A stretch of 64,000 bases of DNA, taken from contig JAHCIY010000002.1 in assembly GCA_026128965.1 (NCBI GenBank), positions 1,512,108 through 1,576,107 on the forward strand, in the 5' to 3' direction. The notes under the pieces were generated by a model. It worked only from the letters and a program-made list of their open reading frames with translations, made no database searches and had not been told where the DNA came from. Position numbers and translations under genes: made by a program. Each line of letters starts with the position of its first letter. Position 1 is the first letter of the stretch. The stretch comes from Labilithrix sp. (lineage in GTDB: Bacteria; Myxococcota_A; Polyangia; Polyangiales; Polyangiaceae). Shown here one piece after another: positions 16,650 through 18,685 of this stretch.

Positions 16650-16723
16650 CGCGCGGTGGAGCAGCCTGGTAGCTCGTCGGGCTCATAACCCGAAGGTCGT
16701 AGGTTCAAATCCTACCCGCGCAA
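16650..16723 (+). tRNA. initiator tRNA-fMet (anticodon CAT)
   Basis: CGCGCGG-TG-GAGCAGCCTGGTAGCTC-G-TCGGG-CTCATAA-CCCGA-AGGTC-GTAGG-TTCAAAT-CCTAC-CCGCGCA-A. It has the C1:A72 mismatch and the three G-C pairs in the anticodon stem that are typical of bacterial initiator tRNA. It is near-identical to E. coli tRNA-fMet. CCA is not encoded. Confidence 0.85.
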
Positions 16724-16772
16724 CTGATAGCCGTACCACGACCCAGCCCTCGGCCCTCCGCCGGGGGCTTCG

Positions 16773-18039
16773 TCATTTCGGCGAGCGCGACGAGCGGGAG
16801 GAAGGTTGCCTCCGCGACGTAGACGCCGTCGTCTCCGGGGGTGAGCAGGATTCGTCCGCCTTCGAACATCCGGCGTAGAGCCTCGCGGGCGCGGAGGGGG
16901 TCCGCGGCGAGCACGGCGTCGAGGTCCTTCGCGCGTTCGAGGACGCGGTCGGGGTCGGGAGGTCCACGGGAGCGTTCATCCGGTCCTTGATGTTCTGAAT
17001 CGCCGTGCGTTCCGTGAGAGCTTGTGCCTCAAGGTCCCGAAGGGCGTCGCGGACCGAACTGGAATGGTCGCCGTCGGCGATGAAGGTGACGAGCCCGCGT
17101 ATGCGTTGCTCCGTCCGGGCGAGGCGGTCGAGCCTCTCCTTCATCTCGTGCTGTGCGAGCCGCGCGGCCTCACCGAGGTGCTCTGCAATGCGCTTGCGAA
17201 GGTGGGCCACCGCAGCCGGTGTGAAGACGGCTTCACGAAGCGCGCCATAGATGCGGGCGCGGACGAGGTCCTCTCGTACCGACAGGGCGTTCTTGCAGAC
17301 GCCCCGCTTCTTCGAGTCCCCGCAGCGATAGTACGAAGTTCGCGGTCCGACCGCCTTGCCGTCGACCTCCGCTCGGGAGCCGCCGGAGATGACCATCGGC
17401 GAGTGGCACGCTGCGCAGATGAGGAGTCCGGAGAGAGGGTAGGCCGTGCGGGCGCCGGGCGCAGACCGCGTCATCCGCTTTACCGTGTATCGACTCCGTA
17501 CTTCGGCGAGACGGGTCCGGACTCTTGTCGGGGACGCTGCAGTATCCAAGCGGGAGCCCGCCGGTCGAGTAGCCGGCGTTGAACTGACTCTCAAGCCCGC
17601 GCAGAGTCTTGTCGCGAAGAGCGTCGAGATAGAGGTCGGCGACCAGGCTCGACATCGTGAACGTCAGCTTGGCCGTCTTCAGTCCCGTGTTGACGCCATC
17701 GGCGACGCCTATGAGGGCGACGTCGAGGTACTGGAGGCGCTTGAAGATGAACGCCGCGTCGGCGAAGTCTCGCGACACGCGCGACATGTCCTCGACGAGA
17801 ATGACGTCGACCCGCTTCTCTTCGACGGCCTTCATCAGCCGCTCGAACCCCGGGCGTTGGAGGCTAGCGGCGCTGACGGCCTCGTCCTTGAAGATGAGCG
17901 CGGGAATCACCTCGGCTCCCGACGCTCGCGCCGCTTCCACGCACCGTCGTACTTGGTCATCGGTTGACCGTTCGTTCTGCAGGGCCGACGAGTGCCGTGC
18001 ATAGACGGCGATTTGCTTGCCGGCAAGGGTACTAGTCAT
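16773..18039 (-). pseudogene. large serine recombinase, disrupted by a frameshift and an internal deletion
   Basis: The resolvase domain (KQIAVYARHSS...VDVILVEDMSRVSR) plus GGLPLGY lie in the frame of ORF 17233..18162. The zinc ribbon (YPLSGLLICAACHSPM) and coiled coil lie in the frame of ORF 16773..17594. Only about 25 codons separate GY from the zinc ribbon where about 90 aa of recombinase domain are expected. Confidence 0.65.
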
Positions 18040-18685
18040 CGCGTACACCGGGTACGTCAGCATGACGAGCATCTCGGACGTCGGTCGTGGTCGAGGTCCG
18101 GCACCAGCCGAGCGCTTCACCGCCGAGACGCACATCGCGCCGACGCAGGTGGGCAAGGGCATCGCGGGTCCTCTCTCCGATGGCCTCGCGCTCCCACTGC
18201 GCCACCGACCCGATGATGTGGAGCACGAGACGTCCCGAGGCGGTACGGGTGTCGATGGAGTCGCCGAGGGAGAGTAGGGAGTGGCGCCGGGAGAAGTACC
18301 GCTCGACGAGGTCGCCGAGGTCGCGGACGCTGCGGGTTAGGCGGTCGAGTTTCACGACGAGAAGTCCGTCGGCTTCGTCGGCGTCGAGGCGCCCGAGGGC
18401 GCGGAGCAGTCCGGGTCGGCCCACCACCGTCTTCGCGGAGATGCCCGCGTCCTCCTCAATGGTGACGAGGTCGAGGTCCATCGCCTCTGCGTAGGCGGTG
18501 AGCTTGGCCCTCTGTGCTTCGAGGGAGGTGCCGGCGTCCGCCTGACCGTCCGTGCTGACCCGGATGTACCCGACCACGCGTGTTCCCAAGGCGTCACCTC
18601 CTTGCGAAGGGGTACCCCGGGGTGGTCCTCGTTTTCGAGATGGGCATCTCGTAAACGGCAAGTACCCCATTCCGATGGCTTCCAC
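18032..18685 (-). CDS. small serine recombinase, catalytic domain only (C-terminal HTH missing)
   Basis: VVGYIRVSTDGQ...LLVVKLDRLTRS...GSVAQWEREAIGERT is a resolvase/invertase catalytic domain. It has no DNA-binding HTH. It ends 7 bp inside the next recombinase gene. The true start is likely the GTG at 18577. Confidence 0.55.
   Translation of the reverse strand: MEAIGMGYLPFTRCPSRKRGPPRGTPSQGGDALGTRVVGYIRVSTDGQADAGTSLEAQRAKLTAYAEAMDLDLVTIEEDAGISAKTVVGRPGLLRALGRLDADEADGLLVVKLDRLTRSVRDLGDLVERYFSRRHSLLSLGDSIDTRTASGRLVLHIIGSVAQWEREAIGERTRDALAHLRRRDVRLGGEALGWCRTSTTTDVRDARHADVPGVRDD

Follow-up and report, generated by a model that had tools for sequence, protein, structure and literature searches.

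tRNA genes have so far been treated as the territory of tyrosine integrases, and serine recombinases are less common at such sites (PMC4383910; PMC7192596), as an earlier note on the DNA described here had remarked. How, then, does a large serine recombinase (LSR) gene come to abut an initiator tRNA gene (tRNA-fMet), and was that tRNA gene its integration target? We addressed these questions in a 64-kb stretch of the genome of Labilithrix sp. (GenBank assembly GCA_026128965.1, contig JAHCIY010000002.1, positions 1,512,108 to 1,576,107), which we call the window and whose numbering is used throughout. The analysis leaves us in very little doubt that the locus is a decayed LSR island at tRNA-fMet. 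Moreover, its recombinase belongs to a coherent clade, a large and undescribed group whose members, judging from their gene neighbourhoods, insert at this tRNA gene.

Results

An island with short attachment sites at tRNA-fMet

We searched for tRNA genes with ARAGORN and Rfam RF00005, for protein domains with Pfam and NCBIfam, and for defence genes with PADLOC. The sole tRNA of the window is an intact tRNA-Met(CAT) at 16650..16724 on the + strand (ARAGORN; Rfam RF00005, 65.3 bits), and it is an initiator, since it combines a C1:A72 mismatch, an A11:T24 pair and three G:C pairs in the anticodon stem (G29-G31/C39-C41). CCA is not encoded. A 10-bp GC hairpin folds just after the gene, and a scan for consensus terminators downstream of it found none. 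Directly after the tRNA, on the opposite strand, lies an LSR pseudogene (LSR1, 16705..18039, -; ATG at 18037-18039), recognised by its PF00239 and PF13408 domains, by translation in three frames and by alignment to intact homologues, the nearest of which is 82% identical. To this extent the earlier note had read the locus correctly.

A repeat search defined the likely ends of the element. An 11-nt direct repeat, CCCGCGCAACT, covers C65 to A73 of the tRNA plus 2 nt (attL core, 16715..16725, +) and recurs at 21931..21941 (attR core, +) with a spacing of 5216. Beside these cores lie the arms GCCGTACCACGACC (P', 16730..16743, +) and GGTCGTGGTACGGC (P, 21905..21918, +), which are inverted repeats of one another over 14/14 positions and stand 5 and 13 nt from their respective core copies. 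The 14-mer arm has only two sites in the window (mean in shuffled sequence, 0.01), and the 9-mer CCGCGCAAC likewise occurs only twice in the 64 kb. Joined, the two ends give a 55-bp attP, GGTCGTGGTACGGC-N13-CCGCGCAAC-N5-GCCGTACCACGACC, whose centre falls on tRNA C66. With these ends, which we consider likely to be correct, the element, E1, extends from 16716 to 21931 (5216 bp), and the final ~9-10 nt of the tRNA, the 3' acceptor strand from C66, would have been supplied by E1 itself. Base composition follows the same boundaries: GC is 0.70-0.71 in the flanks, with a host-like value to the left of the tRNA, 0.62 over 16716-21931 and 0.59 in the + strand cargo at 18739-21820.

This anatomy is what an LSR would be expected to leave behind, namely a short site, inverted arms around a core and little shared identity (11 nt). 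It also shares several traits with tRNA islands of the Islander type, in that the integrase is tRNA-proximal, the composition is foreign and the cargo varies between genomes; the repeat, however, is only 11 nt long, and no displaced tRNA fragment of the Islander type is present. Rfam detected no tRNA fragment in the 21931-21941 region at E<=1, which argues against the usual signature of tyrosine integrases. It might nonetheless be proposed that 21905-21941 is the decayed remnant of a displaced tRNA 3' end, left by a lost tyrosine-integrase island in which the LSR was a passenger. The CCCGCGCAACT copy is indeed the tRNA 3' end, and GGTCGTGGT at 21905-21913 resembles tRNA positions 46-53 (GGTCGTAGGT), but the stretch is at the same time a perfect 14-nt inverted repeat of the other end of the element, which is not expected of a decaying tRNA copy. 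Since, in addition, the 16.7-22.9 kb interval holds no tyrosine integrase and the same arrangement of LSR and tRNA recurs in at least 57 loci, we regard this alternative as very improbable, even though it survives best among those we weighed. As a separate matter, we tried the resemblance of the P arm to tRNA 46-53 as a general rule of these elements and dropped it, as it is confined to the window and absent from L010 and others.

A clade of large serine recombinases at the initiator tRNA

A conceptual LSR1 protein of 444 aa, made by joining its three frames, was used to retrieve 248 homologues, the best 120 of which were examined in detail. A genome scan for LSR homologues, with one genome per species, then yielded 78 loci, nearly all from Myxococcota metagenome-assembled genomes (MAGs; Polyangia, Kofleriaceae, Haliangiales) with a few from Methylomirabilota, Binatia, Nitrospira and Lautropia. 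We scored a locus as tRNA-adjacent when an initiator-type tRNA-Met was convergent with the LSR gene and overlapped it or lay at most ~220 nt from its stop. By this measure, an initiator tRNA-Met stands at the 3' end of the LSR in 34 of the 78 genome loci and in at least 23 further loci from a metagenome scan, at least 57 altogether. Some of the remaining loci stop at a contig edge, while others show the acceptor core followed by a non-tRNA arm, a structure that by its sequence marks an attP-like or tandem junction.

Comparisons between loci separate host from element. In three pairs of contigs (L009/L010, L014/L043 and L060/L023), the same LSR and P' arm adjoin the tRNA in one member and a non-tRNA arm in the other, with the break exactly at the core, and L014 and L012 are tandem elements on a single contig. 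Past the tRNA, host DNA is conserved over 1-2.6 kb in L004/L062/L225, L021/L059 and L185/L218 while the cargo sides are unrelated; L031/L035 provide the converse case, with related cargo and unrelated host flanks. Elsewhere, the elements carry Gabija-like genes (OLD-TOPRIM and UvrD) with AbiJ, DNA polymerase A or Czc efflux genes.

These comparisons bear on the possibility that the element carries the tRNA-fMet gene along, as a mobile tRNA beside its integrase, and that this gene is not a chromosomal target. In its favour, the tRNA and the LSR gene are always found side by side and overlapping, and the element does appear to supply part of the tRNA. Yet the DNA beyond the tRNA is shared by loci whose LSR sides are unrelated, some contigs with the same LSR and P' arm have the tRNA and others lack it, the left flank of the window has a host-like GC content, and the repeat at the far end covers no more than 11 nt of the tRNA. 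Conserved flanks beside unrelated cargo, together with the converse case, establish that the cargo varies and give grounds for excluding an element-borne tRNA, to which we accordingly assign a very low probability. Serine-recombinase integration at tRNA-fMet, as the earlier note had proposed for this one site, is thus supported across the 34 of 78 and at least 23 further loci, with conserved flanks and variable cargo; what that note had named as counterevidence, the same genes at this tRNA with unvarying cargo, is not what the related loci present.

A second att site, consisting of a core with an inverted P' arm, was sought within 10 kb upstream of the LSR in the related loci, and none was found outside the window, so that the islands in those loci are longer than the 10-kb flank.

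In nine further cases (L019, L042, L065, L167, L169, L172, L179, L186 and L210), the LSR is followed by the 3' half of tRNA-fMet, broken right after ..GGGTTATGAG in the anticodon loop. The LSR island appears in these cases to have been displaced by a different element that inserted later in the same tRNA, presumably by means of a tyrosine integrase. In these genomes, tRNA-fMet is a hot spot for which elements compete.

Among cultured phages nothing is closely related to the clade (<32% identity), and IMG/VR yielded only relatives at <=39% identity. The LSR reaches no NCBIfam equivalog; the Ccr models score 119 bits against a cut-off of 900. In relatives at 28-37% identity the reading frame extends 32-66 nt into the 3' ends of tRNA-Met, tRNA-Glu, tRNA-Gly and tmRNA, as seen in the genome loci L066 (11315-11985) and L067 (11632-11987) and in L100, L107, L132, L134 and L139 from IMG/VR. 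Targeting of tRNA and tmRNA genes, here t(m)RNA, may predate the myxobacterial clade and extend beyond it. Within the clade, the proteins of one sub-branch (P0003, P0004, P0007, P0009, P0010, P0015 and P0030) have ..VPKPPDRRRKR-like or ..GVGVPLSVRLA tails that are not tRNA-encoded; this sub-branch probably uses another attachment site.

A predicted crossover and a tRNA-encoded integrase tail

Where within the tRNA would the strands be exchanged? LSR sites are quasi-symmetric about the crossover dinucleotide. We identified 20 attP-like junctions, and wherever these contain a strong inverted repeat (13/13, 14/14, 10/10, 17/20, 11/13), its centre lies at -0.5 or 0.0 when counted from C66. The inner arms of L170, L212 and L216, GGTTGCGC-CCCC-GCGCAACC, form an 8-bp palindrome around the non-palindromic CC|CC. 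Two sites of 40-50 bp are all that an LSR requires, as outlined in PMC12286644 and 10.1101/2025.05.02.651858. From the centre of symmetry and the known layout of LSR sites, we infer that exchange takes place at C65-C66 (16715-16716 in the window), a placement that we think somewhat favoured by the evidence.

The location of the att site has a consequence for the integrase itself. The LSR1 frame extends to ...GTAISCAGRI, where it ends at a TGA (16705-16707) inside the T-loop of the tRNA, a continuation that the earlier note had overlooked. The LSR frame enters the tRNA in 54 of 55 attL loci: 41 end in ..G[RW][IN] at the T-loop TGA, and nine of the 55 in ..FEPxTFGL at a TAA in the anticodon loop. 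Among the best 120 of the database homologues, 72 have C-termini encoded by a tRNA. For LSR1, the excised form would read ...SCAG-AIRGPYHDLRQRVGVRLCRVDDVS, with 24 different residues before the stop, as against ...SCAG-RI in the integrated form. Whether this exchange of tails serves a function is a matter on which we are doubtful, and we hold it to be rather unlikely.

Decay of the recombinase

The state of LSR1 was determined by comparison with intact relatives. Its catalytic domain occupies 18039 to ~17531, the zinc ribbon and coiled-coil region ~17514 to ~16950, and the tail ~16950 to 16705 (all -). PF00239 is matched in ORF 17233-18162 (-; Pfam, E 1e-25), where the catalytic motif YARHSSALQ aligns with the YARYSSxLQ of the homologues, and PF13408 is matched over its full length (1-58/58; E 4e-10) in ORF 16773-17594 (-), in a frame that differs from that of the catalytic ORF. 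The cysteines of the zinc ribbon are present as CAAC...C(x9)C, and a helical-looking conserved stretch can be made out in the coiled-coil region by alignment only. The best 120 of the 248 homologues measure 518-725 aa and all carry PF00239, PF07508 and PF13408; intact homologues, mainly from Myxococcota, typically measure 550-570 aa. LSR1 lacks PF07508 altogether, as alignment reveals a gap between '..SVPDKSPD' and 'RSRYT..'. When compared by blastn with L080, the contig that encodes the nearest intact homologue among those 120 (P0001, the protein 82% identical to LSR1), window 18058-17531 corresponds to L080 1018-1545 and window 17514-16688 to L080 1927-2754, which amounts to a net loss of ~365 nt (~122 codons) at a junction in 17514..17531 (-). 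Because the length of this deletion is not a multiple of three, the frame change at ~17520 is the scar of the deletion and no sequencing slip. Gapped blastn against the intact homologue revealed a second frameshift at 16945..16955 (-), a 1-nt deletion in CCGACCCC(G)GACC that sits in a CCCC(G)G run at ~16950; this one may be real or an assembly error. LSR1 is dead regardless of the reads at that site and, with PF07508 missing, counts as a pseudogene of the LSR family, by its sequence a non-functional member.

The earlier note had described a gene split by a frameshift and shortened by an internal deletion. Both observations stand, with amendments: there are two frame changes, the one at ~16950 having been overlooked; the break for which a sequencing slip at 17400-17600 had been considered is the deletion scar; and the deletion, which removes all of PF07508, exceeds the ~90 aa estimated. 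Might the gene still be intact in the organism, with its breaks introduced by sequencing or assembly? The source looks like a MAG, and a single base in a C/G run is a typical error. The absence of ~365 nt and a whole domain relative to an 82%-identical homologue is nevertheless no indel error, and both the small recombinase and the LSR2 remnant described below are truncated too, so we judge an intact gene highly improbable; the restoration of a single ORF of ~500 aa by resequencing, which the earlier note had envisaged, is ruled out by the missing ~365 nt.

Upstream of LSR1 lies a second recombinase gene, a truncated small serine recombinase of 185 aa with a TTG start (18032..18589, -) that retains its catalytic domain only (PF00239, E 1e-34, located in ORF 18032-18685, -) and whose stop overlaps the ATG of LSR1 at 18039. 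It is 99% identical to P0121, a 185-aa protein of a Labilithrix sp. MAG. Its homologues, many of them from Myxococcota, measure ~235 aa and combine PF00239 with the helix-turn-helix (HTH) start of PF07508; in alignment with them, the small recombinase diverges after 'GGEALGW', and its final ~55 aa, including the HTH, are gone. The earlier note had thus rightly seen a resolvase domain without HTH whose frame meets the LSR start, and the HTH can now be said to have been lost by truncation. It had also spoken of an integrase set, an idea that we abandon: the 78 related loci hold no counterpart of the small recombinase beside the LSR, and two members of its family sit in unrelated contexts. From this distribution, the two recombinases are no set, and the small one is not a conserved partner of the LSR clade. 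That the truncated small recombinase and the domain-less LSR1 form a split, two-subunit enzyme, as their head-to-tail genes with overlapping stop and start and their intact-looking catalytic domains might suggest, is the least credible proposal of all, given that the small protein has no DNA-binding end, that LSR1 is frameshifted twice and lacks the domain that binds the inner att half-site, and that the pairing occurs beside no homologue.

The family of the small recombinase (P0122-P0240 among the members listed) is abundant, with 6993 matches at E<=0.001 among 8000 candidates scored. Many of the listed relatives are 70-86% identical and their named sources are mostly Myxococcota; one member of the family adjoins genes for DNA polymerase A, GmrSD and type I restriction-modification.

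As both recombinases are defective, the element is immobilised, as had been noted before, and the loss of the DNA-binding recombinase domain from LSR1 means that E1 is immobile by itself. The accompanying view that the element is old is not borne out, since the att arms still match perfectly over 14/14 positions.

Cargo and a probable older insertion next to E1

Between the recombinase genes and the right end, E1 carries four genes on the + strand (18739..21820; GC 0.59), arranged as two modules, each a small protein followed by a larger one (157 and 375 aa; 209 and 267 aa). The two small proteins are paralogous (28% identity over 104 aa, E 1e-8). The 375-aa protein is PNP_UDP_1 nucleosidase-like (PF01048, E 3e-15) and matches PADLOC PDC-M60C with E 4e-63, the only component of the candidate system PDC-M60 to be matched; the three neighbouring proteins matched nothing in PADLOC. 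Pfam and NCBIfam likewise gave no match for these three of the four, and no counterparts of the cargo were found in the related loci. The cargo may be a small defence cassette. The 267-aa protein contains an R-x6-H stretch (RDFRNYIH) resembling a HEPN motif.

Immediately beyond attR, at 21942..22499 (-), lies the remnant of a second LSR (LSR2), comprising the start of a zinc ribbon, the end of a coiled coil and a C-terminal tail. Pfam detects a partial zinc ribbon in ORF 21855-22499 (-), and the LSR2 frame runs through attR into E1. In the remnant, '..CGVCGSSM' is fused to 'FIADGQG...', and the sequence ends in '...SSCAG'. LSR2 is 49-57% identical to the proteins of L026, L038, L036 and L034, and the P' arm of its element, E2, TACTCGCAGAATACCG, is similar to those of L034 and L038. 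LSR2 lacks its 5' part, and a frameshifted IS3-like transposase fragment (22560..22800, -) is found in that place; it was recognised by translation (..RPNQLWVADLTY.. / ..RSIVGW.., which we take to be IS3 OrfB motifs), with a weak Pfam rve match (E 0.037). No far end of E2, in the form of an inverted P' arm or a third core copy, was found in the window. On the simplest history, LSR2 is what remains of a tandem insertion that would be older than E1.

On the side away from the LSR2 remnant, the IS3-like fragment is followed by a gene (22837-23577, +) for a cysteine-rich protein of 246 aa with a lipoprotein-like signal (..LLAVVAAC..) and no family match. Its GC content is intermediate, so that it might belong to the host or else to what is left of the E2 cargo.

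Discussion

Taken together, these data make it likely that the initiator tRNA gene of a Labilithrix-like myxobacterium received two small islands in succession at its 3' end, both of them presumably inserted through the catalysis of an LSR of the same clade. In the mechanism that we propose, integrase dimers would bind two sites, a ~50-bp attP of the circular element whose inverted arms surround a non-palindromic CC and an attB spanning the T-arm, acceptor strand and downstream flank of the tRNA, and strands would be exchanged at C65-C66, the junction of T-stem and acceptor stem. The element would bring its own acceptor 3' strand, discriminator base and downstream hairpin, along with CCA where it is encoded; a GC-rich hairpin follows the core in many loci. 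With the acceptor 3' strand borne by the element, the tRNA stays intact, and with attP inside the 3' end of the integrase gene, integration alters the C-terminus of the protein, the stop coming from the T-loop. At the locus studied here, E2 would have inserted first, and E1 would later have used the regenerated tRNA together with the P' arm of E2 as its B' half-site. Decay would have come afterwards, LSR2 losing its 5' part, where the IS3-like fragment now lies, and LSR1 its recombinase domain.

Several observations weigh against this account. The same 5.5 kb contain a further inverted repeat of 14 nt that is due to chance, so it is where the arms lie, and not how long they are, that carries the argument. 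The definition of the ends is backed by one complete attL/attR pair, that of the window, and one tandem pair. A pattern search of metagenome contigs found no circular attP of the E1 type, and when an empty tRNA-fMet locus was sought among the related loci by way of the left flank of the window (SulP transporter, ArsR, SRPBCC), there were no matches. Furthermore, the loci with an initiator tRNA at the LSR end are not phylogenetically independent, and the scarcity of stop codons in DNA of 70% GC could partly explain the read-through into the tRNA.

How does the clade compare with known systems? Its intact members have the domain order of the serine integrases phiC31, Bxb1, A118/LI and TP901-1 (catalytic domain, recombinase domain, zinc ribbon with coiled coil), and its att sites resemble those of phiC31-type integrases: they are short, and their inverted arms stand on either side of a non-palindromic central dinucleotide. 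In contrast to the phiC31 type, the target lies inside a tRNA gene, the 11 nt of identity rebuild the tRNA, and attP is embedded in the 3' end of the integrase gene rather than being intergenic. SCCmec elements offer another parallel: their Ccr LSRs insert at the 3' end of rlmH/orfX while preserving the gene, work as a CcrA/CcrB pair, and build tandem composites, often with defective recombinases. In both cases a conserved gene is preserved despite insertion at its very 3' end, and tandem islands with defective recombinases occur; the Ccr target, however, is protein-coding, the Ccr enzymes act as a pair, and the clade scores far below the NCBIfam cut-offs for Ccr. With Islander-type tyrosine islands, the elements share an integrase beside an intact tRNA, restoration of the tRNA 3' end, tandem arrays and atypical GC, but E1 has no long displaced fragment, its predicted crossover is at the junction of T-stem and acceptor stem, and the enzyme family is different.

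The myxobacterial phage Mx8 integrates in a tRNA locus of its host. The trait that the clade shares with Mx8 IntP and the SSV integrase is an integrase ORF that crosses the att core and has its C-terminus changed on integration. The integrase genes of Mx8 and SSV extend across attP (PMC4383910, citing Tojo et al. 1996). Those two enzymes are tyrosine recombinases, whereas the clade is of the serine type and only its last residues change (2 vs 24 aa after SCAG in LSR1). As for serine integrases with a t(m)RNA target, TIGER placed 14 of 297 S-Int islands at t(m)RNA genes, calling them previously unreported and in need of experimental proof (PMC7192596), and the serine recombinase of the Paracoccus phage vB_PamS_Pami6 is listed at tRNA-Met (PMC6536676). 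These are isolated calls, to which we liken the clade by target only; what is described here is one coherent clade that occupies at least 57 sites, with a defined att architecture and evidence that separates host from cargo.

The copy in the window is itself an ordinary dead island with a small candidate defence cargo, and the interest lies in the LSR family. What is new is a family, within the known large serine integrases, that has a tRNA target and an attP embedded in the integrase gene. It is conceivable, if speculative, that the clade and its distant t(m)RNA relatives form a broad, unrecognised lineage specialised on the T-arm and acceptor end of t(m)RNA genes, in which the tail swap might act as a switch of activity or directionality, as has been proposed for Mx8 IntP/IntX. 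A comparison of the branches with tRNA-encoded and non-tRNA tails could show how the target switched. With dozens of intact enzymes, candidate attP and attB sites and a predicted crossover dinucleotide, the clade can supply the proof for which TIGER asked. Finally, serine integrases are preferred in genome engineering because their sites are short and they need no host factors, and a natural attB in the highly conserved initiator tRNA gene would be a ready-made landing site in many bacteria.

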